A stretch of DNA of 64,000 nucleotides from contig JBAYKT010000006.1 of the NCBI GenBank assembly GCA_041664445.1, positions 8,058-72,057 of the forward strand, in the 5' to 3' direction. This document shows positions 1-21,166 of the stretch, one piece after another. Positions within the stretch are counted from its first letter, which is position 1; every line of letters begins with the position of its first letter. Under the pieces are notes generated by a model. The model ran no database searches. It saw nothing but the letters and a program-made list of their open reading frames with translations, and was not told the DNA's origin. A program made the translations under genes and the position numbers. The stretch is from Patescibacteria group bacterium (GTDB lineage Bacteria; Patescibacteriota; Patescibacteriia; Patescibacteriales; UBA12465).

Positions 1-677
1 CTGCCTGGTTTCCAAGAGGCGTTCCCTCTTTAATGTGGGCTATCAAAGAATCCGGCTTACCAGCAAATGGCACCTGGAAAATTGAAATGATTAAAACCGA
101 TATCATGATACTCTTTCAAGAGTCTTCAGGATATAATCCGATTGGACGTTACACGTCTTATTTCGGTGATCAAATCATCCATCAATTTCCAGAAGTCGGG
201 TTATATCGCATTTCGTTTGGTCAGTTAACCGACGCCAACCAAATGGCTGAGGAATTTTTCTTCTTTGTGCGAGTAAGCGATTATCCAGGAAAAGTCGGCG
301 ATGAAGTTGATAACGATTATATTTTCCGCATGGAAAGTAAAGCGGCTACCGACACCTCTACCGGAGAAATTAAAAATTTGATTTATGTCTATTTTAAATT
401 CTCAGCTGGCATCAACATGGATCCCGAAAAAGCTTATTGTCGCTTAACCGACTTTCGCAAAGACGGCACGGAAATATCCGGCATGACGCACTTAAGAAAG
501 TGGCAATTTGCCAGAGACTACTACTATTTTGTCATTCACCCTGACAACGAATCTATGAGAAAATACCGCGCCATCTTTATGGTTAGCGATACTCAAGGTT
601 TTGAAGGCTATGCCGACCAAAACAATTACCGCTCCAGTTTGTGGAGCAAGTATGGCATCGAATTTGCCGTTCAATAA
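1..677 (+). CDS. hypothetical protein (possibly the C-terminal part of a longer ORF entering from upstream)
   Basis: The reading frame is open from the window edge (codons from nt 3) through the ATG at 33 to a TAA at 675-677. I recognise no motif. It is followed by a hairpin terminator at 731-767. Confidence 0.45.
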   Translation, partial: AWFPRGVPSLMWAIKESGLPANGTWKIEMIKTDIMILFQESSGYNPIGRYTSYFGDQIIHQFPEVGLYRISFGQLTDANQMAEEFFFFVRVSDYPGKVGDEVDNDYIFRMESKAATDTSTGEIKNLIYVYFKFSAGINMDPEKAYCRLTDFRKDGTEISGMTHLRKWQFARDYYYFVIHPDNESMRKYRAIFMVSDTQGFEGYADQNNYRSSLWSKYGIEFAVQ

Positions 678-730
678 AAAAACAAAGGCTTTTCAGCCAC
701 AACAAACAACAAAAAAACACGCAAAACAAA

Positions 731-767
731 AGACCCGAGAATCTCAAAACTCGGGTCTCTTTTTTTA
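731..767. terminator. bidirectional intrinsic terminator between convergent genes
   Basis: AGACCCGAG (731-739) / CTCGGGTCT (750-758) stem. T-run on the plus strand and tttgttttg on the minus strand. Confidence 0.75.
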
Positions 768-783
768 TAAAATTGCTAATTTC

Positions 784-1389
784 CTACCCCGCTATCAACT
801 TAAACAAGAAATTTACCGGCCCGGAGATTATCCCACCAAACAGCATCACGACGATAATTACAAACACAAAGCCCATCCTCTCTGAACTCAAATATCTTTC
901 CTTCAAATGCGGCGGTAAAAATAAGGCGAGCACCTTAGAACCATCAAGCGGTGGAATCGGAAGTAAATTAAAAACGGCCAAGAGCAAGTTGATATAAATT
1001 ATTACGCTTAGGAGCCCGGAAAAAGTCAGGCTCAAATAAGGCAAGAATTTAAGACATAAACCAAAAAATAAGGCAATTGCTAAATTACCTAAAGGCCCGG
1101 CAATCGCCACTTTGGCCTCGCCATATTTTTTATCCCTTAAATTATAAGGATTATAAGGCACCGGCTTGGCCCAGGCAATTAAAAATGGCATATGGGACAA
1201 AACCATCATCAAGGGCAAGAACAAAGACCCAAACCATTCTAAATGGGCCAGCGGATTTAAGGTTAAACGACCGGCATCTTTGGCGGTATTATCGCCTAAC
1301 TGATGAGCCACGTAGCCATGGAGGTATTCGTGAATTATAGCTGAAAAAATCAGCACAATTATTTGAAATATTTCTATCATATAGGCCAA
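784..1389 (-). CDS. site-2 protease family (peptidase M50) membrane zinc metalloprotease
   Basis: HExxH motif in a TM helix (IHEYLHGYVAHQLGD), polytopic hydrophobic profile, LLPIPPLDGSKV motif typical of M50/SpoIVFB-like proteases. Confidence 0.8.
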   Translation of the reverse strand: MAYMIEIFQIIVLIFSAIIHEYLHGYVAHQLGDNTAKDAGRLTLNPLAHLEWFGSLFLPLMMVLSHMPFLIAWAKPVPYNPYNLRDKKYGEAKVAIAGPLGNLAIALFFGLCLKFLPYLSLTFSGLLSVIIYINLLLAVFNLLPIPPLDGSKVLALFLPPHLKERYLSSERMGFVFVIIVVMLFGGIISGPVNFLFKLIAG

Positions 1390-1401
1390 TTATAACATAA
1401 C

Positions 1402-1430
1402 TTGATTAATTTTAAAAATGCTGTTAGAAT
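1402..1430 (+). promoter_or_regulatory. candidate sigma70 promoter for rpmB with an extended -10
   Basis: TTGATT (1402-1407), 17-nt spacer ending in TGt, TAGAAT (1425-1430). ATG at 1462. Confidence 0.55.
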
Positions 1431-1461
1431 AAAACCATTAAAATAAGCAAATAAAACCTAT

Positions 1462-1773
1462 ATGGCCAAAAAGTGTGATTTATGCGGACGCGGAGCAACT
1501 AAAGGTGCCAGCCGTTCCCACTCCAAGATTCAAACTCTAAAAAGACAAAATATCAACTTGCAAAGCAAGGTTATTGAAGGTGTCAAAGTTAAGGTCTGTA
1601 CTTCTTGCATGAGAACCTTAGCTAAACCGGTTAGAGTTAAAACCAAAAGAAAACCAGCCCTAAAAGTTGGTGAATTTGGAACTGCCAGAAAGACTGGTAA
1701 AAAAATTGTTAAACTTGCAAAAAACGCTAAAGCAAAACCAGTTGCAACTAAGTCTGTTAAAGCCAAAAAATAA
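1462..1773 (+). CDS. rpmB: 50S ribosomal protein L28, zinc-ribbon (CxxC...CxxC) form with a Lys-rich C-terminal extension
   Basis: N-terminus MAKKCDLCGRGATKGASRSHS matches the L28 pattern (xCxxxGKxxxxGNxxSHA). Second Cys pair is CTSC. About 40 extra K/A-rich residues at the C-terminus. Confidence 0.85.
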   Translation: MAKKCDLCGRGATKGASRSHSKIQTLKRQNINLQSKVIEGVKVKVCTSCMRTLAKPVRVKTKRKPALKVGEFGTARKTGKKIVKLAKNAKAKPVATKSVKAKK

Positions 1774-1795
1774 AAATTCAAATTTTTGAAATCTA

Positions 1796-1826
1796 AAACT
1801 CCGCCGATTGGCGGAGTTTTTGTTTT
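1796..1826. terminator. bidirectional intrinsic terminator after rpmB and after the convergent secreted-protein gene
   Basis: AAACTCCGCC (1796-1805), loop gatt, GGCGGAGTTT (1810-1819), then tttgtttt. Confidence 0.8.
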
Positions 1827-1841
1827 ACTAATTTTAACATC

Positions 1842-2813
1842 CTATTTTCTAATGTTCGCCGCTTCACTTTCTGTTATTGTTCCGCTGACTTGCTTAATCA
1901 CGATACCGCCTCCGTGCAATTTATTAATTACAGCAGTTACGGTTTTATCTGTTTTATTAAAGTCGCTGTCTATCTTAACATAACGGAATAAATCATTATC
2001 AAAATAAGCTAAAGTCAAATCACTTTCATCAAAATTTTTATCACGCTGTTTATATAAACTAACAGCGGCATCAGTATATTGTACAGAAATTACCGCCGAG
2101 CTCAATAAAGCATGATCCCCTGGTTGCAAAAAATAAGAACCACCGATATAGCTATCATAATCTGTTGCGGAAACGGCGCTTATTTTAAATGCTGTATCAC
2201 TTTCAGCGGTAAAATAAAAAGATAGAGTGCTAAAAACCGTACCCTGTTCATCAGTTGACTTAGCTGTCATGGATTTATCTGTAGTAATAGTAGTTGACTG
2301 AGCAGCTTTAGGAGATGATTCGGCGGGAGTATTTGAAGACTGACTTAATAATGAGTCGGTGCGATTTTTATCCTTATTAGACAAAGGGATTTTAGATAAA
2401 TCGCTATTCTTAATACCCAAACCTAATTTTCTCATAACCGCATAAGCAGCCGCTCCATCTTTCAAATAATTATATCTACCGTCAAAACTAATATAATAAG
2501 CTTCGCCTTTAGACTCTACTTGCAAAAATATCTTACCAATAAATTTTTTGCGATAATTAGCGTCCGTTTTAATTTTATCTAGATTTTTATTACTTATCCC
2601 GATACCAAGACTTTTCATGACATTATAGGCATCGGAGCCATTAGACATATAATAGCGCTGTCCATCTTTTGGATTAACGTACCAAGCTTCACCCTTAGAT
2701 TCGACCTGTAATAATATCCGGCCCTGTAAGTTAGACGCGGTGGCGGATTTAACGGAAAAAAGAGGACTAAATAAAGCAAAAATTAAAAAAACAATTAATA
2801 AACTCCGTCTCAT
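1842..2813 (-). CDS. secreted protein with two tandem ~50-aa repeats, function unknown
   Basis: Signal-peptide-like N-terminus (MRRSLLIVFLIFALFSPLFSVKSATA). Repeats are GRILLQVESKGEAWYVNPKDGQRYY...LGIGISNKNLDKI and GKIFLQVESKGEAYYISFDGRYNY...LGLGIKNSDLSKI. Ser/Thr-rich linker, then a C-terminal domain of unknown fold. Confidence 0.6.
   Translation of the reverse strand: MRRSLLIVFLIFALFSPLFSVKSATASNLQGRILLQVESKGEAWYVNPKDGQRYYMSNGSDAYNVMKSLGIGISNKNLDKIKTDANYRKKFIGKIFLQVESKGEAYYISFDGRYNYLKDGAAAYAVMRKLGLGIKNSDLSKIPLSNKDKNRTDSLLSQSSNTPAESSPKAAQSTTITTDKSMTAKSTDEQGTVFSTLSFYFTAESDTAFKISAVSATDYDSYIGGSYFLQPGDHALLSSAVISVQYTDAAVSLYKQRDKNFDESDLTLAYFDNDLFRYVKIDSDFNKTDKTVTAVINKLHGGGIVIKQVSGTITESEAANIRK
2388..2723 (-). 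repeat. protein-level tandem duplication (2 x ~50 aa) inside the secreted protein
   Basis: Repeat 1 is aa 31-81 and repeat 2 is aa 93-142 of ORF 1842-2813. Shared core: LQVESKGEAxY...DG.xYY/NY...AY.VM+.LG.GI.N.+L.KI. Confidence 0.7.
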
Positions 2814-2831
2814 AAAATAATAATTAATAAA

Positions 2832-4166
2832 TTATCTATAATAATTATAGCAAATAATAATAAGAAGTAACAAATAATAAACGAAGGTGCCTAAATAATC
2901 AAAGTTGTTAATTTCGATGGCCGCCCAGTTCGGCGCGGCAAAAAATCGGGCAGCGACAAAAATAAATTTCAGCATCAAATAAGCCGGCGCAAACAACCAT
3001 GGTCCAAGACTAGGAAAAATTAACGCAGGAATAATTGGAATAATTAAAGCTGCGAGCAAAAACGGAAATATCCAAATCACCGCCGGATTAGCAACAAAAG
3101 AAATTACAGAAAATTGTTTAAAGTTACTAATCATAATCGGCAAGACGGCTAATTGGCAGGCGAGCGTTAAGCTAAATATCTCCCAGATGCCAATAATTAA
3201 CTTCCCTGTTAATCCGGAAAATTTCTTTTTTATTTTTGGCGCCAATTGAGCAAAAAATGGATAAATATAAATTATTCCGCTTACTGCGGCAAACGAAAGT
3301 TGAAAACCAACATCATCCCTTAATAAACGATGATTAAAAACTAACATCAGGGCTGCCGAGAAAACTAAAGCGCGAATGATTGAAGACAGGCGCCCATAAT
3401 ACAAAGCGAGAAATACCAAGCCGCCCATAATCGCCGAGCGGACAGCGGAAGCACTCAGGCCAGTTATCAAAGGATATAAAAACAAAAAAAGAAAAACAAT
3501 TTTTAAAGCAGCCTGACGGCGCAAACCGATAAACAAGGCCACGTTTAGAACCATGGCGCTCATAATCGTGATATGTGAACCAGAAATAGCAATTAAATGA
3601 CTTAGTCCCACACGAGCGAATAAATCAGAATCTTCAGATAAAATTGTGCGACGATAACCTAAGAGCAAGGCGTCCGCCAAGCCCGCTTCTGGTTCGGGCA
3701 AAGACCTATCAATGGTTAATTTAATTCCCTGCTTTATTTTTAAGAGCCGCCCATAAATCTTCTGCCCAAAACTTAAATCCCCGCTCGCCCTCGTGATTTT
3801 TGGATAATACATCACGGAATAAATATCATAACGTGCTAAATAGCGTTCATAATCAAAACCCTTGAACTCTTCGGGTGTCTTTACTGAGCCGCTAATTTGT
3901 AAAAAATCGCCATAATCATATTCCGGGTAGAGATTGGTCGTAATTAAAACCCGACTGCCAGCGCAAACGATTAAACGCCGACTCTTATAATCAATATCTG
4001 CTTCTTCGCAAACCCGGCCGCTAAAATCTAAATTCTGGCCATTATAATAAGCGGCATCGGTATTTTTAAAAGTAGGCAAAAAAGCGCGCTTATCTATACC
4101 ACGCGCAAAAATAAACAGAATAAAAATTAAATTAACAGCAAAAAATATCTTAGACGGTGTTAGCAT
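2832..4166 (-). CDS. comEC: ComEC/Rec2-family DNA internalisation channel protein, short form (no C-terminal metallo-beta-lactamase domain)
   Basis: N-terminal OB-like region followed by a polytopic competence domain with the motif GLSHLIAISGSHITI. 444 aa, ending in TM helices. Confidence 0.8.
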   Translation of the reverse strand: MLTPSKIFFAVNLIFILFIFARGIDKRAFLPTFKNTDAAYYNGQNLDFSGRVCEEADIDYKSRRLIVCAGSRVLITTNLYPEYDYGDFLQISGSVKTPEEFKGFDYERYLARYDIYSVMYYPKITRASGDLSFGQKIYGRLLKIKQGIKLTIDRSLPEPEAGLADALLLGYRRTILSEDSDLFARVGLSHLIAISGSHITIMSAMVLNVALFIGLRRQAALKIVFLFLFLYPLITGLSASAVRSAIMGGLVFLALYYGRLSSIIRALVFSAALMLVFNHRLLRDDVGFQLSFAAVSGIIYIYPFFAQLAPKIKKKFSGLTGKLIIGIWEIFSLTLACQLAVLPIMISNFKQFSVISFVANPAVIWIFPFLLAALIIPIIPALIFPSLGPWLFAPAYLMLKFIFVAARFFAAPNWAAIEINNFDYLGTFVYYLLLLIIICYNYYR

Positions 4167-4195
4167 AAAAAAATACTCTCTTAATGAGAGTATTT
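4167..4195 (-). terminator. hairpin plus T-run directly abutting the comEC start codon (terminator or attenuator after the HIT-like gene)
   Basis: The minus strand reads AATACTCTC attaa GAGAGTATT ttttttt, then the ATG of comEC at 4166. Confidence 0.5.
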
Positions 4196-4226
4196 TAACT
4201 AACGAGTAATAAAATGATAATAAAAT

Positions 4227-4703
4227 CTATAGACCCCAGGCTTCATCAGAATATTTGGGCAAAGCAAATATCTTTTCAATCTCCGTTTGTAACAATTTTA
4301 CATCGTCTCCGCTCAAAGGCTCAAAGCCTTCATAAAATCCAGTCTTTCGATCAGGCAAATACATACTTTCCGGCCACGGCTGTTTAACGGCATTAGTCGC
4401 ACGCCCAAAAATATGAACATGCAAAAAGGGTTGAGGATTATCACCTTTCCAAAACCAATTGCCCATGTCTTGATAATTAATTTTAATCACCGGTATCCCC
4501 TGTTCATTCATAACTTTCTCCAAAGCTAGACCGCAGACAATCGTAAAACGCATCAGCTCAATCGCCAGCTTCGGCTCCAATTTTGTCCGGTCAGAAATAG
4601 TTTTATCTTTCGGCAATATCCGAATATGGCCGCCGTCTGTTCGCGGCAAAAACGGCTGTTCATGAGATTCAACAATAAAATTTTTAGTTTCAAAAATAAA
4701 CAT
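4227..4703 (-). CDS. HIT-like nucleotide hydrolase/transferase-fold protein (degenerate histidine triad)
   Basis: C-terminal half carries PFLHVHIFGR, resembling the HxHxHxx triad with one His replaced. Overall size fits the HIT fold. Assignment is tentative. Confidence 0.4.
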   Translation of the reverse strand: MFIFETKNFIVESHEQPFLPRTDGGHIRILPKDKTISDRTKLEPKLAIELMRFTIVCGLALEKVMNEQGIPVIKINYQDMGNWFWKGDNPQPFLHVHIFGRATNAVKQPWPESMYLPDRKTGFYEGFEPLSGDDVKLLQTEIEKIFALPKYSDEAWGL

Positions 4704-4706
4704 ATA

Positions 4707-5801
4707 TTATTTCTTTAAAAATCTTAAATAGGCTTCCATAAATGGTTCTAAATCGCCGTCTAAAACCGCGTCCACATTAGAAGTTTCATATTCACTGCGA
4801 TGATCTTTAACTAATTTATTGCCATACATAAAATATGAACGGATTTGTTTCCCCCATTCCGCTTTCTGGACGCCGCCTTTTAATTTCTTTTCTTCCGCTT
4901 CCCGCTCCTCCAACAAGCGCTGATTTAACTTGGCGCGTAAAATTTTAAAAGCATTTTCTTTATTTTGATGTTGCGAGCGTTCAGTTTGGCAAGAAACGGT
5001 GACGCCGCTCGCCAGATGAACGATGCGGACAGCGGAATCAGTCGTGTTCACGCTTTGACCGCCCGGACCGCTAGAACGAAAAACATCTATCCGAATATCT
5101 TCGTCCTTAATCACGATCGCACCTTCATCAGCAATTTCCGGAATAACTTCTATTAAGGCAAAAGAAGTTTGACGCAGGCCATCGGCATTGAAGGGCGAAT
5201 TGCGGAGCAAACGATGAACACCGTTCTCGCTTTTTAAATAACCATAGGCATATTGACCGCTAAGGCGCAGATCAACGCTTTTAATTCCCGCTTCGTTGCC
5301 ATAGTTTCTATCTAGAATCTCGGCCTTAAAACCCTTGCGCTCAGCAAAGCGCAAATACATACGTTCTAACATCTGAGCCCAATCCTGAGCGTCCACACCG
5401 CCCGTACCAGCGTGAATGGACAAAAAAGCATTAGCTCTATCATGCGCTCCGGAAAAGAGCGAGAAAAACTCTAATTGCGAAAAATCCTTTTCTAAAAGCA
5501 CGGTTTTCTTTTCTAGTTCCTGAGTTAATTCATCAGTCGCCTCCTGTTTCGCTAAATTAGCCATTTCTTGAGTTTCCTGGATTTCTTGTTCAATCGCGGC
5601 CCATTGTTTAATTTCCGTCGCCAACTCCTCGGCTTCTTGGCCAACTTTAACCGCCACTTCTTGGTTGTTCCAAAAATCTGGCGCCGACATCTGTTTCCGC
5701 AGTTCTTGTTCGCGACCAATTTTAACTTCAATATTCAAAAGCGCCTTGATTTTTGATAATCTAGCTTGCAGTTCTTTTAGTTTTTCTAAGATGGCTTCCA
5801 T
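4707..5801 (-). CDS. prfB: peptide chain release factor 2, encoded in a single uninterrupted frame
   Basis: SPF tripeptide (RNSPFNADG), GGQ motif (SGPGGQSVNTTDSAVRIVHLASG). 364 aa with no internal in-frame stop or frameshift site. Confidence 0.95.
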   Translation of the reverse strand: MEAILEKLKELQARLSKIKALLNIEVKIGREQELRKQMSAPDFWNNQEVAVKVGQEAEELATEIKQWAAIEQEIQETQEMANLAKQEATDELTQELEKKTVLLEKDFSQLEFFSLFSGAHDRANAFLSIHAGTGGVDAQDWAQMLERMYLRFAERKGFKAEILDRNYGNEAGIKSVDLRLSGQYAYGYLKSENGVHRLLRNSPFNADGLRQTSFALIEVIPEIADEGAIVIKDEDIRIDVFRSSGPGGQSVNTTDSAVRIVHLASGVTVSCQTERSQHQNKENAFKILRAKLNQRLLEEREAEEKKLKGGVQKAEWGKQIRSYFMYGNKLVKDHRSEYETSNVDAVLDGDLEPFMEAYLRFLKK

Positions 5802-5807
5802 ATCTTG

Positions 5808-5835
5808 ATTATAACAAACGGGCGCTATAAAGCAA
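5808..5835 (-). promoter_or_regulatory. candidate prfB promoter (TTGCTT-16 nt-TGtTATAAT) placed for a leaderless transcript
   Basis: The minus strand reads TTGCTT (5835-5830), a 16-nt spacer ending in TGT, and TATAAT (5813-5808). Only 6 nt (caagat) separate it from the prfB ATG at 5801. Confidence 0.6.
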
Positions 5836-5860
5836 AAGCCGTCTTTTGGAGACGGCTTTG
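5831..5860 (-). terminator. intrinsic terminator after rpsI (end of the infA-to-rpsI operon)
   Basis: The minus strand reads AAAGCCGTC tccaaaa GACGGCTTT, then tgctttat. Confidence 0.7.
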
Positions 5861-5880
5861 CGATATATGAGATATAAAAA

Positions 5881-6381
5881 TTAACGTTTGCTCCATTGTG
5901 GGGCTTTTCTGGCTTTTCTTAAACCCGGTTTCTTTCTTTCAACTTGTCTTGGATCGCGAGTCAAGAAGCCGTTCACTTTCAAAGCTTCTTTAGTATTTGG
6001 GTCGAGAGCAAAAATAGCACGAGCGATACCTAATTTAACGGCATCAACTTGACCGAATTTACCGCCGCCATTAACAATTACGGAGAAATTAAAATCACGA
6101 TTATGGCCGGTGACTTTTAAAGGCTGAACAATATTATTAAATCCTTCACCTTGAAAATATTCTGCAGCGCGCTTACCGTTGACCATAATTACGCCCTTGC
6201 CGCCTTCATACAAGCGGACCTGAGCGGAGGCCTGTTTACGACGACCGACAGCTTTAATATATTTACCGGAGAATTCCACTACGCTTTCGTTCTTAGCCCA
6301 TTCTTTATCATCGAAAGTTACGTCATCAACCACGGCTTCAAATTCGTCTTCCATGATGTCTTTGGTTTTTTTATCTGCCAT
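5881..6381 (-). CDS. rpsI: 30S ribosomal protein S9 with an acidic N-terminal extension
   Basis: GRRKQASAQVRL... and the C-terminal RQVERKKPGLRKARKAPQWSKR match S9. About 38 extra acidic residues at the N-terminus. Confidence 0.95.
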   Translation of the reverse strand: MADKKTKDIMEDEFEAVVDDVTFDDKEWAKNESVVEFSGKYIKAVGRRKQASAQVRLYEGGKGVIMVNGKRAAEYFQGEGFNNIVQPLKVTGHNRDFNFSVIVNGGGKFGQVDAVKLGIARAIFALDPNTKEALKVNGFLTRDPRQVERKKPGLRKARKAPQWSKR

Positions 6382-6382
6382 A

Positions 6383-6739
6383 TTATTTTATAATTAATCT
6401 TTTGAGCATATTAACGCGCAACTTGGTTGGCGGCAACATTTCTCTAACCGCCCGTTGTAAAACTTCTCCCGGATTAAGCGCGAAAACCGTGGACATTTTT
6501 TTAGATTTTAAACCACCGATATAGCCGGAAAAATGATGATATTCTTTCTGATCAAGTTTTTTGCCGGTAAACTTCAACTTGCTGATATTTTTAACTTCCA
6601 CAATATCGCCCATATCGATATGAGCTTGGTATTCTGGTTTATTTTTACCATGAAGCAGATTAGCAATCTTGGTGGCTAAACGACCAACAGTTTGATCGGT
6701 GGCGTCCAGTTGATGCAATTTTCTTTCAATATTTTTCAT
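6383..6739 (-). CDS. rplM: 50S ribosomal protein L13 (short)
   Basis: DATDQTVGRLATKIANLLHGKNKPEYQAHIDMGD matches the L13 N-terminal signature. Lies immediately upstream of rpsI, the conserved rplM-rpsI pair. Confidence 0.9.
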   Translation of the reverse strand: MKNIERKLHQLDATDQTVGRLATKIANLLHGKNKPEYQAHIDMGDIVEVKNISKLKFTGKKLDQKEYHHFSGYIGGLKSKKMSTVFALNPGEVLQRAVREMLPPTKLRVNMLKRLIIK

Positions 6740-6743
6740 ATTT

Positions 6744-7094
6744 TTATACTAATTCAATTTGAACCATTTCCGCACCATCGCCCTGTCTGACTCCCAGCTT
6801 AACGATTCTGGTGTAACCTCCAGCGCGTTCTTTATAACGGACACCTAAAACATCCATGGTTTTTTTAATAGCGTTCTTTTGCAAGAGAACTTTGATTAAA
6901 CCGCGGCGAGCTGCTAAATCTCCGGCCTTAGAAGCGGTAATCATTCTTTCTACTAGTGGTCTAACAGCCTGGGCCTTAGCCTTGGTTGTTTTAACTTTTT
7001 CATATAAAAGAATGCTAGACGCTAAATTTCTAAGCATCAATTCGCGTGGACCCTTTTCTCGGTCTAAAATTTTGTTTTTATTTCTGTGACGCAT
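6744..7094 (-). CDS. rplQ: 50S ribosomal protein L17
   Basis: MRHRNKNKILDREKGPRELMLRNLASSILLYEKVKTTKAKAQAVRPLVERMIT is a typical L17 sequence. Follows rpoA. Confidence 0.95.
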   Translation of the reverse strand: MRHRNKNKILDREKGPRELMLRNLASSILLYEKVKTTKAKAQAVRPLVERMITASKAGDLAARRGLIKVLLQKNAIKKTMDVLGVRYKERAGGYTRIVKLGVRQGDGAEMVQIELV

Positions 7095-7106
7095 AAACAG
7101 GCTTAA

Positions 7107-7946
7107 TTATTTCTTTGGTTTTTTAACTTTTTCTTTTTTTTCTTTTTTAGGCTCAGCGGCTTCTTCATCTTCAACAATTTCAGCTACAGCTTCGTCTTCT
7201 TCAATAACGACTTCAGCTTCAATCTGGTTAGCGGCTTCGGCGGCCATTTCTTTGCCGATATTTTCCGGTAACAAGGCTTTATATTGTTCAACTAATATTT
7301 TAACCGCTTCATTGAAAGCATCTTCCGGGCTAATTGTGCCATCAGTTTTAACATTCAAAACTAACTTATCCCAGTTGGTCATTTTACCGACACGGGCATT
7401 ATCAACTTGAATGCTAACAACAGTTACCGGAGAAAAGATGGAATCAATTTCAATGAAACCAATTTCCTTATTTTCTTTCTTATTGCCTTCAGACATTTTA
7501 TAACCACGTCCGCCTTTTACTAAAATTTCAGCTTCTAAGCTTCCGGCTTCGTCCGTAATATTAGCAATCACTAAATCCGGATTCTTAACCTCCACATCGC
7601 TATTTTTAGCAATATCACCGGCAGTAACCACTTTCTTGCCTTTAACTTTTAATTCCAAGCGGATTTCTTCTTCGGTAAAAACCTTAAGTCTTAATTGCTT
7701 CAAGTTTAAAATCATTTCTAAAACATCTTCTTTAATATGAGGCAGGGCCATAAATTCATGGCTAGCACCTTTAATTTTTACTCCGATGACAGCGGCTCCT
7801 GGCAAAGAAGACAAGAGTACGCGGCGCAAGGAATTTCCCAAGGTCATACCATAGCCAGGAAATAGAGGCTCGATAGTAATGATTCCCTCGTTGGTATCAC
7901 CAACGGTCTTAAAATCAATTTTCTTAGGATTAGCGATGTTTTGCAT
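7107..7946 (-). CDS. rpoA: DNA-directed RNA polymerase alpha subunit, N-terminal domain only plus an acidic/Lys-rich tail
   Basis: GYGMTLGNSLRRVLLSSLPGAAV is the alpha-NTD signature. Conserved position between rpsD and rplQ. The last 53 aa are low complexity, with no alpha-CTD motif. Confidence 0.9.
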   Translation of the reverse strand: MQNIANPKKIDFKTVGDTNEGIITIEPLFPGYGMTLGNSLRRVLLSSLPGAAVIGVKIKGASHEFMALPHIKEDVLEMILNLKQLRLKVFTEEEIRLELKVKGKKVVTAGDIAKNSDVEVKNPDLVIANITDEAGSLEAEILVKGGRGYKMSEGNKKENKEIGFIEIDSIFSPVTVVSIQVDNARVGKMTNWDKLVLNVKTDGTISPEDAFNEAVKILVEQYKALLPENIGKEMAAEAANQIEAEVVIEEDEAVAEIVEDEEAAEPKKEKKEKVKKPKK

Positions 7947-7955
7947 ATTATTTTT

Positions 7956-8585
7956 TTATTTTGAATAATATTCAATGATCATATGAACATTGATGCTTTG
8001 TGGAAGATCTTCGTCCTTAGGTTCGTGTAGAATCTTCGCGGCCATCTCTGTATTGTTGAAATTTATCCAGCTTGGTCTTTCAGCCTTAGCAATCTTTTCA
8101 TTGGCATTTCTGAAATATGGACTCTTTTGGCTAGATTTTCTAATTTTAATAACTTGTCCCAGCTTAACACTGAAAGAAGGGATATCGGTCTTGCGATCAT
8201 TAACGGTAAAATGTCCGTGATTTACCAATTGACGAGCTTGCGCACGGGAACTAGCAAAACCAGCCTTGAAAATAACGTTATCCAAACGTGATTCCAATAA
8301 TTTCAAGAAGTTCTTACCGGCATCACCCTGTTTCTTGGCTGCCTTTTCAAAAGTCAAACGGAATTGCTTTTCGGAAACGCCATAATATTTCTTGGCTTTT
8401 TGTTTTTCAGTTAACTGTGTTCCGAAGTCGCTCAAACGCTTGCGTCCTTTAGGACCATGAAAACCCGGAGCGTAGTTACGCTTAACCATCGCACATTTTG
8501 GCGAAAAACATCTTTCACCTTTTAGAAAAAGTTTTTCACCGACGCGACGGCATTGCTTACATTTATTATCAATATTTCTTCCCAT
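7956..8585 (-). CDS. rpsD: 30S ribosomal protein S4 (zinc-ribbon form)
   Basis: N-terminal CKQCRRVGEKLFLKGERCFSPKC, S4 domain LESRLDNVIFKAGFASSRAQARQLVNHGHFTVN. Confidence 0.95.
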   Translation of the reverse strand: MGRNIDNKCKQCRRVGEKLFLKGERCFSPKCAMVKRNYAPGFHGPKGRKRLSDFGTQLTEKQKAKKYYGVSEKQFRLTFEKAAKKQGDAGKNFLKLLESRLDNVIFKAGFASSRAQARQLVNHGHFTVNDRKTDIPSFSVKLGQVIKIRKSSQKSPYFRNANEKIAKAERPSWINFNNTEMAAKILHEPKDEDLPQSINVHMIIEYYSK

Positions 8586-8600
8586 ATTTTTGTGATTAGT

Positions 8601-9182
8601 TTAAACTCTTCTCGGCTTCTTAGGACGGCAACCATTATGAGGAACCGGGGTGGTGTCCTTGATTGACGAGACGTCCAAACCATTAGCATTTAAAGCGCGG
8701 ATAGCGGCTTCGCGGCCAGTACCAACACCAGAAACAAAGACGCTTACTTCTTGCAAGCCATATTCTTCTTTAGCTTTCTGAGCGGCAATCTTAGTAATAA
8801 TTTGAGCGGCATAAGGAGTGGCTTTCTTGGCGCCCTTAAATCCGGCTAATCCGGCTGAAGCCCAAGCGATAACATCGCCGTTATTATCAGTTAAAGTAAT
8901 CATGGTGTTGTTATAAGTCGCCTGAATATAGGCGCGACCAACCTTGACTACTCTAGCTGTTTTTTTCTTTTTCTTTTTAACTAATTTTTTCTTGGCGCGA
9001 GCAGCCTTATTTTTTTCAAGTTTTTGCTTGATTTCTTCCGGCAACTCTTCATCAGAGGAATCAAAAGAAAAGGCCGCCATTTCATCGCGTTCTTCTTTCT
9101 CTTCACTGTTAATTGCTTTTTCAGCAACTGGAAGCGAAGTTTCTTCTGATTTTTCTGCGTCTTTTTTTACTTCTTCAGACAT
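8601..9182 (-). CDS. rpsK: 30S ribosomal protein S11 with a ~65-aa acidic/Lys-rich N-terminal extension
   Basis: The core [30 protein letters not shown]...[13 protein letters not shown] matches S11. It is preceded by an E/K-rich segment absent from E. coli S11. Confidence 0.9.
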
Positions 9183-9205
9183 ATTTTAAACTCTTAGAAT
9201 TTTAA

Positions 9206-9601
9206 TTAGGTCTTCTGTAATCCGGCCTTGCTCTTGCCGCTCACCGCGGTCATGCGCTTATTGCCACGAACAGTACGACTATTAGTTTTAGTTCTCTGAC
9301 CTCTAACCGGTAAATGCTTGGCGTGTCTCAAACCGCGATAACAACCGATTTCTTTCAAACGCTTGATATTGCTTTGAACTTCACGACGCAAATCGCCTTC
9401 AACCGTAAATTTCTTTTCGACTAATTCTCGTAAAAGATTAACATCTGATTCCTTTAAGTCCTTAACTCTGATATCTTTATCGACTTTGGCGGTTTCCAAA
9501 ATTTTATTGGAACGAGTGCGCCCAATGCCATAGATATAAGTTAAAGCGATTTCGATTCTTTTTTCGTTAGGGATATTAACTCCCGCTATTCTTACTGCCA
9601 T
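9206..9601 (-). CDS. rpsM: 30S ribosomal protein S13
   Basis: [35 protein letters not shown] is canonical S13. Confidence 0.95.
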
Positions 9602-9613
9602 AGATATTAAAAA

Positions 9614-9727
9614 TTACCCCTGTCTTTGTTTATGTTTAGGGTTTTTGCAAATTACGTGGACCCGACCTTTGCGTCGCACTACTTTGCAGTCTTTACAAAT
9701 TTTCTTAGCGCTGGCTCTCACTTTCAT
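9614..9727 (-). CDS. rpmJ: 50S ribosomal protein L36 (not in the supplied ORF track)
   Basis: Manual translation of the minus strand gives [37 protein letters not shown] followed by TAA. This is the canonical L36, in the conserved position between infA and rpsM. Confidence 0.9.
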
Positions 9728-9800
9728 ATGATACTGTTTACTTGTCTTTCTTAATTAAACTGCGAGGTTTAATATATAAAACAATTCTATATTTTTATAA

Positions 9801-10058
9801 TTACATGCGGTAAGTAATCCGCCCTTTGCTTAAGTCGTAAGGGCTGATTTGAAGTTTAACCTTATCACCCGGAAGCAAGCGGATACGGTTCATTCTCATT
9901 TTGCCGGAAAGATGAGCAAGAATTTCATGGCCATTTTCTAGGGCCACGCGAAAACTAGCGGCTGGCATTAGCTCTAATACCTCGCCCTGCATTTCAATAA
10001 AATCTTTGGCGTTCAAATCACTGGATATTTCGTTGTTGTTTCCCATGTCTTTTGACAT
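9801..10058 (-). CDS. infA: translation initiation factor IF-1
   Basis: S1-like core [64 protein letters not shown]. The track ORF extends to 10100, but the hydrophobic first 14 aa look non-native, so I prefer the ATG at 10058. Confidence 0.88.
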
Positions 10059-10151
10059 TAACACAAAAAAATTTGATAAAGACAAGACTCGCCTTATCAA
10101 AGTTTTTTAAAAATATTTTCGCTTATTTAATATAATATTCTTAATAAAATT

Positions 10152-10180
10152 ATTATAGGGATAAGTTTGAAAGTTGTCAA
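10152..10180 (-). promoter_or_regulatory. perfect consensus sigma70 promoter (TTGACA-17 nt-TATAAT) upstream of infA
   Basis: The minus strand reads TTGACA (10180-10175), a 17-nt spacer actttcaaacttatccc, then TATAAT (10157-10152). It lies between the alaS stop and infA. Confidence 0.7.
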
Positions 10181-10190
10181 TAGTTAACAC

Positions 10191-12014
10191 CTATCCCTCT
10201 AAGACCGCCTTAATACGCCTAACACCGGCACTGGATGACTCCTCTTTCTGAATCTTAAATTTACCTAATATTCCAGTATTATTTACGTGCGGGCCACCAC
10301 AAATTTCTTGAGAATAGGCGACTTTAACATCTGGCTTCCCGTCAGCCAATAATGACGCCGCCGTATAAACCTTAACCCGCTCACCATACTTGGAATCAAA
10401 GACTCCCATCGCTCCCCGCTCCTTAGCTTCTTCAAGCGATAATTCCTCACAAGTTACCGGCAAATTGGCGGTAATTGCTTCATTAACTAATTCCTCGGCT
10501 TTAGCGATTTGTTCGGGAGTCATCTTCTCCGTATGAGAAAAGTCAAAGCGTAATCTCTCGGAAGTAATATTACTTCCTTTTTGGGTGACGTGCTCGCCCA
10601 GGACTTGGCGCAAAGCGGCTAGCAATAAATGAGCAGCAGTATGTAATTTAGTAGTCTCTTCACTATGGTCAGCCAAACCGCCCTTGAATTTACCGGCGGA
10701 AGCAGTCCGCGAAAGTTCTTGATGCTTAGCTAATTCTAAGGCAAAGCCCTCTTTATCAACCTTAATCCCCTTTTCGGCAGCCAACTCTTCGGTAATCTCC
10801 AAAGGAAAGCCGTAGCTTTGATAAAGCCGGAAGGCGTCTTCCCCGCTTAAATTACCTTGAGCTAATTTTTCAAATTCTAAAATACCTTTTTCTAGAGTAT
10901 GAGAAAATTTCTCGGTCTCTTTAGTAAGCTCACTGGAAATGGTTGGCAGATTATTTTTTATTTCAGGATAAACATTGGCATAAATTTGAGCGACAGCGGC
11001 CGCAATCTCGGCTGGCCAATTAATATCTTGCTGGCTGATTCCCAATTGACGACCATAACGTATTGCTCGTCTGATTAATCGTCTAAGCACATATCCTTGA
11101 TCGGTATTAGAGGGAGCAATTCCTTTATCGTCACCAATAATAAGGGTGGCCGCTTTTAAGTGATCAGCAATAATGCGCATCGCCTTGTCACTATTAGAGT
11201 CAGCACCATATTTTTGGCCACTCAATTCTTCAATCTTATTAATAAGCGGACGGAACAACTCGGTTTGATAATTATCATTCAAGCCGTTAATCACTGCCAA
11301 GACTCTTTCCAAACCTAAACCAGTATCAACATTGGTTTGTTTAAGCGGTTCAAAGTTTCCGTCAGCCGTCTTATTATATTGCATGAAAACGTCATTCCAA
11401 ATTTCCACCCATAAATCGTTGTCATCATTAAAGCTTGCCGGAACCTTATCAGCATCTCCGACCCAATAAAACATTTCCGAATCCGGGCCGCAAGGACCAG
11501 TAATTCCGGCTGGACCCCACCAATTATTTTTTTTAGGCAATTTTGCGATTCTTTCAAGCGGCAAATTATTAGATTTAAAAATTTCTTCCCAGATCTGATA
11601 AGCTTCTTCATCATAAGGCGCATCAGCGTCTCCCTGAAAAACAGAAACGGCTAAGCGGTTTTTATCAAGACCAAGCCAAAATGTTGAAGTTAAAAACTCC
11701 CAGCTAAAGTTGATGGCTTCTTTTTTAAAATAATCACCCAGTGACCAATTGCCCATCATTTCAAAAAAAGTATGATGTGTCCTGTCACCAACCTCGTCAA
11801 TATCTCCAGTTCTAATACATTTTTGCGCATCTGTCAGACGATTGCCGGCCGGATGTTTTTCACCCAAAAGAAAAGGCACAAGCGGATGCATTCCCGCTGT
11901 TGTAAACAAAACCGTCGGGTCATTTTCCGGAATTAAACTAGCACTAGAAATAACCGCATGTCCTTGAGCTTTAAAAAAATCTAAATATTTTTGGCGTAAT
12001 TCGTTAGCGTTCAT
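10191..12014 (-). CDS. alaS: alanyl-tRNA synthetase, short form (catalytic, tRNA-recognition and editing domains; no C-Ala domain)
   Basis: MNANELRQKYLDFFKAQGHAVISSASLIPENDPTVLFTTAGM is canonical AlaRS. Editing-domain motifs HTAAHLL and CGGPHV are present. The protein ends about 30 aa after CGGPHV at 607 aa. Confidence 0.9.
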   Translation of the reverse strand: MNANELRQKYLDFFKAQGHAVISSASLIPENDPTVLFTTAGMHPLVPFLLGEKHPAGNRLTDAQKCIRTGDIDEVGDRTHHTFFEMMGNWSLGDYFKKEAINFSWEFLTSTFWLGLDKNRLAVSVFQGDADAPYDEEAYQIWEEIFKSNNLPLERIAKLPKKNNWWGPAGITGPCGPDSEMFYWVGDADKVPASFNDDNDLWVEIWNDVFMQYNKTADGNFEPLKQTNVDTGLGLERVLAVINGLNDNYQTELFRPLINKIEELSGQKYGADSNSDKAMRIIADHLKAATLIIGDDKGIAPSNTDQGYVLRRLIRRAIRYGRQLGISQQDINWPAEIAAAVAQIYANVYPEIKNNLPTISSELTKETEKFSHTLEKGILEFEKLAQGNLSGEDAFRLYQSYGFPLEITEELAAEKGIKVDKEGFALELAKHQELSRTASAGKFKGGLADHSEETTKLHTAAHLLLAALRQVLGEHVTQKGSNITSERLRFDFSHTEKMTPEQIAKAEELVNEAITANLPVTCEELSLEEAKERGAMGVFDSKYGERVKVYTAASLLADGKPDVKVAYSQEICGGPHVNNTGILGKFKIQKEESSSAGVRRIKAVLEG

Positions 12015-12048
12015 ATTTATATAAAATTCTAATTTATCTTAGACTTTA

Positions 12049-13068
12049 CTATATTATATTAACTTCCTCACTTAAATCAAGGCCAAACTTCTTTTTAACC
12101 GCGGCCTTAACTTTGGTCACCAGACTTAAAACTTGTTTAGCACTAGCGCCGCCCTCATTAACCAAAATCAGCGCTTGTTTTTCATACATCCGAACCGGTC
12201 CAAATTTCTTACCCTTGAGCCCAGCCTGTTCAATTAACCAACCGGCCGGTATTTTTATTTTATTAGCTTGACCAGGAAAAGATGGAATCTCCGAATATTG
12301 TTGCTGTAATTTTTTGAATTGAGCCCTACTTATCTCCGGATTCTTAAAAAAGGAACCGGAATTAGGCAAAGCCTGCGGATTGGGAAGCTTACTATTTCTA
12401 ATTTCACCGATAGTATTAACAATGTCACGAATCGTAATTTTCTTGATACCCTTCTCGACTAATTTTTCTTTAATGGAGCCATAGTCTAATTGAAAATTAG
12501 GCTTGAGTGCCAAAGATACGACCACTGAATAAATAAAGTAGCGCCCTTTAAACTTATTTTTAAAAACGCTGTCCCGATAACCGAAGCGGCAATCAGCCGC
12601 AGAAAATATTTTTTCCTGACCGGTTTTCAAATCAAAAGCTAAAAGATGATGGAAAGAATCTTTAAACTCGACACCGTAAGCGCCGATATTCTGGACCGGA
12701 GCCGCGCCGACCGTGCCATAAATCAAAAATAAATTTTCCAGGCCATAAAATTTATGATTAGCCGTAAAGGCAACAAACTTTGACCAAGATTCTCCCGACA
12801 AAGCTTCCACCAAAACTCGGGTTTTATTTTTTTCAATTACTTTTATCCCCTTAATTTCATTTTTTAAAACTAAACCCTTAATTCTCTGGGAAAATAAAAT
12901 ATTAGAGCCGCCGCCTAAAACGGTTATCGGCTGCTTATTTTTTTTAGAAAAAGCCAAAGCCTCCAAAAGTTCTGACTTATTTTTCACAATCGCAAAATAA
13001 TCGGCGAGCGTGCCGACTTTAATGGTTGTATATTGTCCCAGCGGATGGTCTTTTTCTATTTTTAACAT
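12049..13068 (-). CDS. murB: UDP-N-acetylenolpyruvoylglucosamine reductase
   Basis: FAD-binding motif ITVLGGGSNILF. C-terminal GWLIEQAGLKGKKFG and GGASAKQVL motifs are typical of MurB. Confidence 0.9.
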   Translation of the reverse strand: MLKIEKDHPLGQYTTIKVGTLADYFAIVKNKSELLEALAFSKKNKQPITVLGGGSNILFSQRIKGLVLKNEIKGIKVIEKNKTRVLVEALSGESWSKFVAFTANHKFYGLENLFLIYGTVGAAPVQNIGAYGVEFKDSFHHLLAFDLKTGQEKIFSAADCRFGYRDSVFKNKFKGRYFIYSVVVSLALKPNFQLDYGSIKEKLVEKGIKKITIRDIVNTIGEIRNSKLPNPQALPNSGSFFKNPEISRAQFKKLQQQYSEIPSFPGQANKIKIPAGWLIEQAGLKGKKFGPVRMYEKQALILVNEGGASAKQVLSLVTKVKAAVKKKFGLDLSEEVNII

Positions 13069-13091
13069 ATAAATATTTATTAACGGGAAAA

Positions 13092-14903
13092 TTATTCTTC
13101 CAATTCACCGACTTCTTGCAGTTTTAATAATTTAGAATACAGGCCTCCGGAAACTCTGGCTAATTCCAAATGATTCCCTTCTTCGGCCACCTGGCCATTT
13201 TCCAAGACAATTATTTTATCAGCATTTTTAATAGTACTCAAGCGATGGGCAATAATAATCATGGTGCGCCCGCGGCTAATCTTTTTCATCGCGTCAGAAA
13301 TCAAGCGTTCACTCTCGCTATCCAAACTGGAAGTCGCCTCATCAAAAATTAAGACTCGAGGATTGGCCAAAATTGCACGGGCAATCCCTAAACGCTGTCG
13401 TTGGCCGCCGGACAATTTAATGCCTCGTTCGCCCACTAAAGAATCATAGCCTTTCCCCAGCTTAAGAATAAATTCTTCAGCATTAGCAATGCGCGCCGCG
13501 GCTTGAATCTCCTGTTTAGTGGCGTCTGGTTTGGCATAAGAAATATTTTCAGCCACCGTTAAATCAAAAATTTCTACTTCCTGCGGAACAATCGCCAAGA
13601 ACTTACGAAAAGCTTTTAAATCATAAGAGCGTAAATCGCGGCCATCAAGCAAGACTTGACCTGACTGCGGATCGTAATGGCGATAAACTAAACGCGCGAC
13701 TGTGGTTTTGCCGCCGCCGGAAGGTCCAACCAAGGCCACGACGGAACCGGAACTGATTTTAAAATTTAGTTTAGAAACCGCGGTTCGCAAATTATCACCG
13801 TAAGCGAAAGAAACATTCTTAAAAGCAATTTCTCCGACTATTTTTTTAGGAATAAGCCCTCTAGTTTTATTCTTAATTTCATCAGTGGCATTAAACAATT
13901 GTAATAAGCGATTAACGCCTTCACGCCCTTCTTCCATCTTATCGTAAAATCTGGTCAAACGGTATAAAGAAGCATAAGCAGTTTCGCTGAGCGTAAAAAT
14001 AAAGATTAAAGTACCGACGCTCATTGAGCCTTCAGCCACCAAATAAACGCCCAACAACAAAACAGTGGCCCGACCGATATCAGCAATGGAATTTCGTACT
14101 AAACCGATTTTCATCATCCAACCCCATTGCTTATCTTCATTTTCTCTTAGGTCATTTTTAATTTTACCGAACTCGCGGAGCTCACGGTCTTCCTGAACAA
14201 ATGATTGGACGGCATTAATATTAATGATTGACTGAGTCATTTTGCCAGAAGCGGTTTCATAATCGCGATAAATTTGTTTTCTGACCGGATACATACGACG
14301 ATTAGACCAATAAACAATGGCAACGAAAATAGCGGCAAAAAACAAAAAAGAGGAACCAATTCGCCAATCTGACCAAAATAAAGCAACTAGCGTAAAACTT
14401 AGTTGAATAAGTGTCGGAAAAAACTCCCAAAAGAAATTGTTTAAAAATTCGGAAATCTTATCAACTCCTTTTTCTATTTTAATTATCTTGGCGCCGGTAT
14501 TTTGTTTTTCATGATATCCTAAGCTGAGCGAAACTAATTTCTCCTGCGCTTTCATGCCTAAAGAATATTCAACCTCCACCAACATCCGCAAAATCTGACG
14601 GTCACTAAAATAATGAATAAAAGAACGCACTTCTTCCGTCGTCAAATAAAGAGCAATTAACTTTAACAAAAAAATGATGCGCTCTTTATCAAAATTATTT
14701 AAGCTATCGACCACTACTTTTAAAAGATAGGGTTTTAATAAATCCAAGGCGCCAATAAACAGCGAAATAATAACAATTTTGATAAAAAACTTGCGGAAGG
14801 GCTTAAGTAAAAACCAAAAATCAAACCAAAAACTACGACGAGCGCCGCTAGTTTCTAATTTTTTAAAATCTAGTTTTTTTTCAGTGGTTTTTGTTTTTTG
14901 CAT
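13092..14903 (-). CDS. ABC exporter, fused TMD-NBD (MsbA/multidrug-type), embedded in the mur cluster
   Basis: Six predicted TM helices, then Walker A GPSGGGKTT, signature LSGGQRQR and Walker B LIFDEATSSLD. The ATG at 14903 overlaps the murC 3' end by 34 nt. Confidence 0.85.
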   Translation of the reverse strand: MQKTKTTEKKLDFKKLETSGARRSFWFDFWFLLKPFRKFFIKIVIISLFIGALDLLKPYLLKVVVDSLNNFDKERIIFLLKLIALYLTTEEVRSFIHYFSDRQILRMLVEVEYSLGMKAQEKLVSLSLGYHEKQNTGAKIIKIEKGVDKISEFLNNFFWEFFPTLIQLSFTLVALFWSDWRIGSSFLFFAAIFVAIVYWSNRRMYPVRKQIYRDYETASGKMTQSIININAVQSFVQEDRELREFGKIKNDLRENEDKQWGWMMKIGLVRNSIADIGRATVLLLGVYLVAEGSMSVGTLIFIFTLSETAYASLYRLTRFYDKMEEGREGVNRLLQLFNATDEIKNKTRGLIPKKIVGEIAFKNVSFAYGDNLRTAVSKLNFKISSGSVVALVGPSGGGKTTVARLVYRHYDPQSGQVLLDGRDLRSYDLKAFRKFLAIVPQEVEIFDLTVAENISYAKPDATKQEIQAAARIANAEEFILKLGKGYDSLVGERGIKLSGGQRQRLGIARAILANPRVLIFDEATSSLDSESERLISDAMKKISRGRTMIIIAHRLSTIKNADKIIVLENGQVAEEGNHLELARVSGGLYSKLLKLQEVGELEE

Positions 14904-16303: not shown

Positions 16304-16311
16304 GACAAGTA

Positions 16312-17445: not shown

Positions 17446-17455
17446 TTAATCAAAC

Positions 17456-19650: not shown

Positions 19651-19660
19651 AGTCAGTATT

Positions 19661-20074
19661 TTATCTAAAATTTATAAAATTAAGAGCCAAAAGGGCTAAA
19701 CTCAAGAAAACAGCAAAGGCTACGGCCGCTCCCAACAAAAAATGAATTATCAGCCTGGTTTCCTGGCGTCTGGCTAAGACAGCGGCTAAAATGACATTAA
19801 TAATAGCTACGCCTAAACCAAACAGTGGGTAATAAAAAATTGATTGCGGACGGCCAATCAAGTCAACACCAAAATCAATATTATAATGCAAAATTGTAAA
19901 ATCGCCCGTTAAACGACGATAAATGGCGATGGTTTGCAGCCAAGCCAGGGCCTGCAAAAAAATAATGAGCCCTGCATAAATCTTGGTAAAATTAAATTTA
20001 AAAATACGCTTAAAAGCTGCCCCGGAAAGTTGCAAAAAAGTATAAAAACGAGCGTAAAAATTAGAATAATTCAT
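19661..20074 (-). CDS. hypothetical membrane protein upstream of mraY
   Basis: 137 aa with 3-4 hydrophobic helices and no recognised motif. Co-directional with mraY, 10 nt away. Confidence 0.5.
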   Translation of the reverse strand: MNYSNFYARFYTFLQLSGAAFKRIFKFNFTKIYAGLIIFLQALAWLQTIAIYRRLTGDFTILHYNIDFGVDLIGRPQSIFYYPLFGLGVAIINVILAAVLARRQETRLIIHFLLGAAVAFAVFLSLALLALNFINFR

Positions 20075-21161: not shown

Positions 21162-21166
21162 AAATA

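Follow-up and report, generated by a model that had tools for sequence, protein, structure and literature searches.

In the textbook view, the C-terminal domain (CTD) of the alpha subunit belongs to every bacterial RNA polymerase; it reads upstream promoter (UP) elements and docks class I activators such as CRP, and UP elements supply much of the strength of ribosomal RNA promoters. A 2025 preprint calls the alpha-CTD "ubiquitously present across all Bacteria" (10.1101/2025.07.04.663149). The rpoA gene in a 64,000-nt stretch of a Patescibacteria group genome (contig JBAYKT010000006.1; the whole stretch is referred to as the window) raises the question of whether a bacterial lineage can do without this domain and what stands in its place. 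We found that the window encodes a genuine alpha subunit in which the N-terminal domain (NTD) is followed by an acidic segment and a Lys-rich tip instead of a CTD, that a large Falkowbacteria-like clade and its sister clade show a fixed loss of the CTD, other Patescibacteria keeping the domain, and that the tip, which ends in an AT-hook in most proteins of the sister clade, is a candidate for a simpler contact to upstream DNA. Our literature search found no description of a CTD-less alpha subunit, or of an AT-hook on alpha, in Patescibacteria or the Candidate Phyla Radiation (CPR), although most subscription journals lay outside this search and a prior mention is possible.

Results

The window rpoA encodes a complete alpha-NTD and no CTD

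The gene and its parts were delimited as follows.

7107..7946, minus strand: rpoA, RNA polymerase alpha subunit; open reading frame (ORF) of 279 residues plus a TAA stop codon
7269..7946, minus strand: alpha-NTD, residues 1–226, complete; the platform for dimerisation and for beta/beta′ assembly, placed by alignment to PDB alpha subunits
7152..7268, minus strand: acidic tail segment, residues 227–265 (PENIGKEM...EDEEAAE), from the translation and the clade alignment
7110..7151, minus strand: Lys-rich C-terminal tip, residues 266–279, PKKEKKEKVKKPKK-COOH; the conserved part of the tail

A Pfam scan of the window RpoA returned PF01193 (residues 26–221, E 6.4e-22), interrupted by the insert domain PF01000 (residues 56–172, E 4.2e-30). 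The TIGR02027 rpoA model is matched with 252.5 bits at a cut-off of 227.8, with residues 21–249 aligning to model positions 2–229 of 298 and the CTD portion of the model left unmatched. Several NCBIfam equivalog models score the protein under their cut-offs, and its match to the archaeal-type PRK00783 (subunit D) is weak. Alignments to PDB alpha subunits cover residues ~5–226 only (E 1e-58 to 1e-49): residues 5–225 of the B. subtilis subunit (6wvj, E 3.8e-58) and residues 9–232 of the E. coli subunit align to the window NTD, so that E. coli position ~232 corresponds to residue 226 here. An earlier note on this DNA, made from its letters, had described the NTD as complete and as ending in parallel to that of E. 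coli, and both statements agree with these alignments. Mean column identity over the NTD is ~74% among 20 aligned clade members. The gene order rpsM-rpsK-rpsD-rpoA-rplQ in the window is that of the bacterial alpha operon, and the order rpsD-rpoA-rplQ is also present in two related, Pfam-annotated contigs (L081, L083); the arrangement of rpsM, rpsK and rpsD upstream of rpoA recurs in related contigs as well. By its NTD and its operon context, the window protein is a genuine, full-length RpoA of the bacterial type.

The remainder of the protein, encoded by 7110..7268 on the minus strand, is a tail of 53 residues, PENIGKEMAAEAANQIEAEVVIEEDEAVAEIVEDEEAAEPKKEKKEKVKKPKK, followed by TAA. The PF03118 (alpha-CTD) search that the earlier note had proposed gave no match in the window RpoA, even at E ≤ 10. 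We further built an alpha-CTD hidden Markov model (HMM) from 84 CTD-bearing homologues, starting from the E. coli CTD sequence and iterating, and used it to scan the 64-kb window; it detected no CTD in any of the six frames. Its best match (E 0.66) is the helix-hairpin-helix domain of RuvA and not an alpha-CTD. The rpoA stop is followed after 12 nt by the start of rplQ (7094), which leaves no room for a shifted, split or other-frame CTD. The central claim of the earlier note, an alpha subunit in which an acidic/Lys-rich tail takes the position of the CTD, thus stands by both the Pfam search and our own model. The protein lacks a feature that helps to define its family, the CTD, and has a new C-terminal module.

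Loss of the CTD is common to a Falkowbacteria-like clade and its sister clade

We scanned one genome per GTDB species with two clade-specific peptides. This yielded 235 stretches encoding relatives, of which the best 80, mostly labelled Candidatus Falkowbacteria or Patescibacteria group, were used; the organism is a Falkowbacteria-like member of Patescibacteria. In all 80 species-level loci, rpoA consists of the NTD and a tail of 36–71 residues, and no CTD is detectable in six frames within ±3 kb of the gene. The clade includes a complete genome of 977 kb (CP066698.1; L003) with an alpha-NTD of 96% identity. rplQ follows 2–50 nt past the rpoA stop wherever its start could be placed (75 of 80 loci).

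The database homologues give the same picture. The 120 proteins closest to the window RpoA (71–100% identity, 247–295 residues), one of which is identical to it, carry only PF01000 and PF01193 in their precomputed Pfam annotation. The nearest outgroup cluster (P0122) is 59% identical to the window RpoA, and its 120 closest relatives, labelled Falkowbacteria or Patescibacteria, contain no PF03118 either. The ortholog comparison called for by the earlier note therefore extends the absence of the CTD from one gene to 80 related loci and 240 homologues.

The C-terminal tip is conserved as protein

The two parts of the tail behave differently between species. The acidic part is rich in Glu, Ala and Val and varies freely in both sequence and length. 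Without its last 15 residues, the tail of the window RpoA has a net charge of −13; the clade median is −10, and values reach up to +7 among the sequences compared. The last 15 residues of the window tail carry a net charge of +6. Aromatic, Cys and His residues together make up 0.35% of the clade tails. We computed an AlphaFold (AF2) model from a 20-sequence alignment; with a mean predicted local distance difference test (pLDDT) score of 57.9 it is of moderate confidence, and it was not used for fold searches. Residues 229–279 have pLDDT values <50, with a low-confidence helix at 228–252, and the acidic segment is accordingly predicted to be disordered or to form a low-confidence helix.

The extreme C-terminus is a different matter: 66 of 81 clade sequences end in KKxKK and 77 of 81 in KK. 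Over the last 15 positions, Lys codons are distributed as AAA:AAG = 469:209 and alternate between species. This alternation and the variable distance to rplQ imply that the tip is conserved as protein and not as a DNA or translation signal; a cause at the DNA level, such as a translation signal for rplQ or a poly-A tract, is unlikely for the same two reasons. One relative (L001; JAEHGX010000025.1, 999..1841; protein P0004, 94% identical) has a 1-nt indel in the A-rich Lys tract, which changes the tip to ...KKEKKKKLKNQRNN. The indel is either a homopolymer sequencing error or a sign that the tract is prone to indels.

Segments of this composition are not a genome-wide habit at a strict threshold: among 69 window ORFs, rpoA alone contains a 25-residue stretch with ≥68% Asp, Glu and Lys. 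Milder extensions are present on two ribosomal proteins. S11 (8601..9182, minus strand, 193 residues) has an N-terminal extension of ~65 residues that is likewise acidic and then poly-Lys, and S9 (5881..6381, minus strand, 166 residues) has an acidic N-terminal extension of ~35 residues. It may be a habit of the lineage to add charged low-complexity extensions to proteins that bind nucleic acids.

The tip is an AT-hook in the sister clade

An AT-hook consists of an R-G-R-P core flanked by basic residues and binds the minor groove of A/T-rich DNA, a motif reportedly described by Aravind and Landsman in 1998; the alpha-CTD contacts the same type of target, the A/T-rich minor groove, in UP elements. 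The P0122 protein ends in ...KKQKRGRPKKN. Among its 120 closest relatives, 108 have a canonical AT-hook end and the other 12 a Lys-rich end. The commonest hooks (KKRGRPKK, KKKRGRPKK and KKRGRPRK) lie 0–4 residues from the C-terminus and follow an acidic stretch. The identification rests on the motif pattern, because the Pfam AT_hook model, which does not match the sister-clade motif, cannot score a motif as short as 13 residues. One rpoA with an AT-hook (P0417) lies in the operon infA-rpsM-rpsK-rpsD-rpoA-rplQ-rplM-rpsI, the same context as in the window.

The window tail ends in a Lys-rich tip without an R-G-R-P core, and the 80 clade loci contain neither GRP nor RGR. Histone H1-like tails are extended, disordered, basic regions rich in Lys and also in Ala and Pro. 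The window tip resembles them in being Lys-rich, but it is only ~14 residues long, has Glu interspersed and shows no sequence homology, so that the likeness is one of composition only.

The tail may derive from an interdomain linker

We searched 1.84 billion representatives of 50%-identity clusters, using the alpha subunit as query, and analysed the best 150. By our CTD HMM, 84 of these carry the CTD and 66 do not; the Pfam scan found PF03118 in none of the 66. About 25 of the CTD-less representatives are fragments, chimeras or frameshifted high-GC sequences. The 41 that look complete comprise 26 with Lys-rich ends, 5 with an AT-hook, 5 with purely acidic ends and 5 with short tails. AT-hooks thus occur in 5 of 66 CTD-less clusters and in none of the 84 CTD-bearing ones.

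The named CTD-bearing neighbours (P0129, P0139, P0141) are Patescibacteria too, and the loss therefore occurred within the phylum and is secondary. In a rough neighbour-joining (NJ) tree of the NTDs, most CTD-less forms group in one large cluster and others are scattered among CTD-bearing forms; for example, P0129, which has a CTD, adjoins P0130, which has an AT-hook, at 50% NTD identity. This suggests that the CTD was lost more than once, a single-domain NJ tree being weak evidence on the point. The interdomain linkers of CTD-bearing Patescibacteria are unusually long, often 24–48 residues, and acidic or Lys-rich. In P0142, for instance, the linker reads ...EAEIKEELAKPKKVKKVT-KKK- and is followed by the CTD. 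The tail of the CTD-less forms is therefore most simply explained as a retained linker.

Five further proteins (P0187, P0196, P0236, P0249, P0260) have both a CTD and, behind it, an acidic and/or Lys/Arg-rich extension of up to ~130 residues. Charged disordered alpha tails are thus not limited to CTD-less lineages.

Operon context and promoters

The neighbours of rpoA and the operon promoter are listed below.

6744..7094, minus strand: rplQ, ribosomal protein L17
7956..8585, minus strand: rpsD; alpha operon, upstream of rpoA (ORF translation)
8601..9182, minus strand: rpsK; alpha operon, upstream of rpoA (ORF translation)
9206..9601, minus strand: rpsM; alpha operon, upstream of rpoA (ORF translation)
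10152..10180, minus strand: sigma-70-type promoter with the perfect consensus TTGACA-17-TATAAT (promoter-site scan)

The promoter lies directly after the alaS stop, upstream of infA-rpmJ-rpsM-rpsK-rpsD-rpoA-rplQ-rplM-rpsI, and has no TG extension. Between positions 1 and 20000 of the window, the scan gave 66 promoter-like sites, compared with 48 ± 7 expected, including a single perfect 12/12 site. Only one of the three window sites scoring ≥11/12 has TGn in front of the −10 hexamer. The strong reliance on extended −10 elements that the earlier note had read from the window is, on these counts, weakly founded.

Other features of the window

Nearly all genes of the window are encoded by the minus strand and belong to tight housekeeping operons, which include mur/ftsW/mraY, SecA, isoleucyl-tRNA synthetase, ribonucleotide reductase, RuvA and tyrosyl-tRNA synthetase; no tRNA, rRNA or Rfam-family RNA was found in the whole 64 kb (1..64000). 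The alanyl-tRNA synthetase (10191..12014, minus strand) has 607 residues and ends just after the tRNA_SAD domain, without the C-terminal region of the ~875-residue E. coli enzyme. Its counterpart on L083 is likewise short (624 residues). The gene for an RF2-type release factor (4707..5801, minus strand; SPF and GGQ motifs) is one unbroken ORF of 364 codons; it lacks the programmed +1 frameshift site that prfB commonly has in bacteria.

Discussion

A tethered basic tip as proposed upstream contact

Since the CTD fold is absent, contacts to class I activators and canonical UP-element contacts are impossible through the window alpha. What is left at the vacated position suggests that a simpler contact to upstream DNA was kept, or re-invented, in the tip, because the tip is conserved as protein and its counterpart in the sister clade is an AT-hook. 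The earlier note had concluded that promoters are recognised without UP-element or activator contacts. The part of this conclusion that concerns contacts made by the CTD fold stands; that no upstream contact is made at all does not follow, in view of the conserved tip and the sister-clade AT-hook. We consider it about an even bet that the enzyme is a natural alpha-ΔCTD polymerase in which a tethered basic tip replaces the upstream minor-groove contact of the CTD while the class I activator contacts are lost.

Such an enzyme would work as follows. Dimerisation of the NTD and its assembly of beta and beta′ would proceed normally, and the result would be a naturally occurring version of the E. 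coli alpha(1–235) enzyme. The tail would descend from the long acidic interdomain linker of CTD-bearing Patescibacteria, and its acidic part may either serve as a flexible spacer repelled by DNA or interact with the tip within the same molecule. Upstream of the −35 element, the basic tip (KKxKK, or KKRGRPKK in the sister clade) would be a minimal, sequence-tolerant anchor to the DNA backbone or minor groove. In part it would stand in for the UP-element contact of the CTD and, binding non-specifically or with a preference for A/T, could stabilise promoter complexes. Each enzyme would carry two tails of ~50 residues with a contour length nearing 190 Å, and the tip could thus reach DNA upstream of −35. 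Activator contacts that require the CTD fold would be gone, in keeping with the few regulators that these organisms have. Two reported losses fit a reduced reliance on activators: the clade to which the CPR belongs is said to have no full-length CRP/FNR proteins (10.1101/2025.07.04.663149), and the families listed as missing from CPR genomes include sigma-54 (PMC6744442).

Several observations weigh against a DNA-anchoring tip. The window tip is Lys-rich without the RGRP core, the whole tail has a net charge of −7, and a Lys-rich tip might just as well bind RNA or an acidic partner; a motif of 13 residues, moreover, is too short for a profile to confirm. Evidence from promoters is weak: the operon promoter has no A/T-rich UP-like block upstream. 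When 83 strong promoter-like sites of the window and of the 80 loci are pooled, A+T content 11–30 nt upstream of −35 is 0.67–0.69 compared with 0.60 overall, a rise that is only mild and in which many sites are orthologous and not independent. In one relative from the AT-hook clade, a single case, the equivalent promoter has A/T-rich DNA further upstream.

A more far-reaching version of the tethered-anchor proposal is that a large branch of Patescibacteria replaced the folded CTD by a peptide anchor, an acidic spacer with an AT-hook or Lys tract, and so gained a new minimal grip on A/T-rich upstream DNA while dispensing with all CTD-dependent activators; by the NJ tree, this may have arisen more than once. 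We put this forward tentatively and on balance lean against it.

Alternative explanations

The best-surviving alternative is that the tail is a functionless remnant, a linker left to drift after deletion of the CTD, and that alpha makes no upstream contact. The high variability of the acidic part, tail lengths of 36–71 residues and pLDDT values <50 in the AF2 model would all be expected of such a remnant; similar linkers already exist in CTD-bearing relatives, the operon has a perfect-consensus promoter that lacks an UP-like block, and L001 tolerates a frameshifted tip. Drift is harder to reconcile with an extreme C-terminus that is kept across 80 species despite synonymous codon turnover, and with an AT-hook that 108 of the 120 sister-clade proteins retain, invariably at their C-terminus. 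Moreover, the tail is fully lost in no lineage examined, and the few tails of only 15–18 residues are still Lys-rich. We therefore regard a functionless tail as unlikely.

A second possibility is that the acidic part acts as a polyanionic mimic of nucleic acid, comparable to the C-terminal region (CTR) of the delta subunit or to sigma region 1.1, which would curb non-specific binding of DNA or RNA and aid recycling, with the Lys tract as an electrostatic modulator. The acidic disordered stretch does adjoin a Lys tract in the tail, and Kuban et al. 2019 reportedly observed that the Lys tract of delta interacts with its acidic region. B. subtilis delta (RpoE) resembles the alpha tail in attaching a disordered acidic region to RNA polymerase; it consists of a folded NTD and a disordered acidic CTR with a net charge of −47 (PMC7749165). 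Delta, however, is a subunit in its own right with a folded NTD, and in the window RpoA no delta-type folded NTD was found, Pfam giving alpha NTD domains only. The acidic part of alpha is also much shorter and less charged (−13), some clade members have a very short or near-neutral acidic part (net up to +7), and the conserved element is the basic tip and not the acidic part. Finally, the AT-hook indicates DNA binding rather than mimicry. Mimicry as the role of the tail appears decidedly unlikely.

Thirdly, the function of the CTD could be supplied in trans by a separate gene encoding an alpha-CTD-like domain that docks onto the polymerase. Short proteins with PF03118 only do exist in public data (27 found by profile search), and our scan covered 64 kb of the window genome and ~6.7 kb around rpoA in the relatives. 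The possibility of a separately encoded CTD, raised by the earlier note for the genome as a whole, can thus be answered for the window and for the ±3 kb around rpoA in the 80 loci, where none was detected; genome-wide, the answer covers only 64 kb. Among the 27 CTD-only matches, source names never point to the window clade, and those inspected are either frameshifted ordinary rpoA genes or lie in an unrelated setting. On L081 (2397..3349), an apparently split rpoA with NTD and CTD ORFs at the native site is a frameshift, in which the NTD end (…IETDGTITPHEAL…) continues in the frame of the CTD ORF. The split rpoA at the native site on L082 (4354..5240) is also a frameshift; many genes on this contig, SecY included, are in pieces. 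The remaining protein inspected, P0308 (127 residues, PF03118 only), is encoded on a 29.8-kb Joint Genome Institute (JGI) contig (sample 3300071358) among small unannotated genes and a DUF6884 gene, without rpoA or ribosomal-protein genes in its neighbourhood. We would guess that its context is phage-like or a mobile element and that the protein is a candidate decoy or mimic of the alpha-CTD. As an explanation for the window clade, a CTD in trans is very improbable.

There is next to no chance that a sequencing frameshift, mis-assembly or premature stop cut short a normal rpoA, as the earlier note had asked: the 3′ end of the gene is a homopolymer-rich A tract, in which L001 has its indel, but the close spacing of rplQ, the lack of CTD-coding sequence in any frame and the same architecture in 80 independent species genomes and 240 database homologues rule out a truncation.

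Comparison with known systems

The proposed alpha with a tethered tip has its closest experimental counterpart in the engineered E. coli alpha(1–235), or alpha-ΔCTD, polymerase, reportedly introduced by Igarashi and Ishihama in 1991 and taken up in later work. This enzyme assembles the core and carries out basal sigma-directed transcription, is blind to UP elements and class I activators, and the truncated alpha alone does not support growth. Like the window alpha, it consists of the NTD alone and ends at the equivalent position. The window form differs in being natural, lineage-fixed and presumably viable, and in having a conserved acidic and basic tail added. Compared with a canonical alpha-CTD (PF03118), the window tail occupies the same position, behind the NTD and a flexible linker, and an analogous job at the A/T-rich minor groove is proposed for its tip, whereas the helix-hairpin-helix fold and the activator surfaces that depend on it are missing.

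CarD offers a parallel for the exchange of an AT-hook for a Lys-rich tract: the acidic region and AT-hooks of the Myxococcus xanthus protein, which has an HMGA-like C-terminal domain, are interchangeable with the Lys-rich H1-like domain of the Anaeromyxobacter protein, with function kept (PMC2919716). As in the alpha tail, a disordered acidic region stands beside AT-hooks on a module that binds RNA polymerase, and AT-hook and Lys-rich versions occur in related lineages. CarD is, however, an accessory factor with four AT-hooks, whereas in alpha one hook or Lys tract is carried by a core subunit of which each enzyme has two copies; the two share no sequence homology, and DNA binding by the alpha tail is putative. 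Archaeal Rpo3 (subunit D) and eukaryotic Rpb3 are homologues of the alpha-NTD that lack an alpha-CTD, as does the window alpha. In contrast to these, the window RpoA is of the bacterial type, both by its TIGR02027 score and by its operon, and its loss of the CTD is secondary.

Significance

A natural, lineage-wide polymerase without the alpha-CTD means that bacterial life can do without this domain. Such an enzyme allows the purpose of the CTD to be tested cleanly and bears on how regulation is simplified in ultra-small, host-dependent bacteria. For annotation, models of full-length RpoA and models used for completeness estimates and as phylogenetic markers will score such CTD-less proteins low. 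The AT-hook at the vacated position of the sister-clade proteins would represent a rare case in which a folded DNA-binding domain gave way to a short linear motif expected to prefer the same groove.

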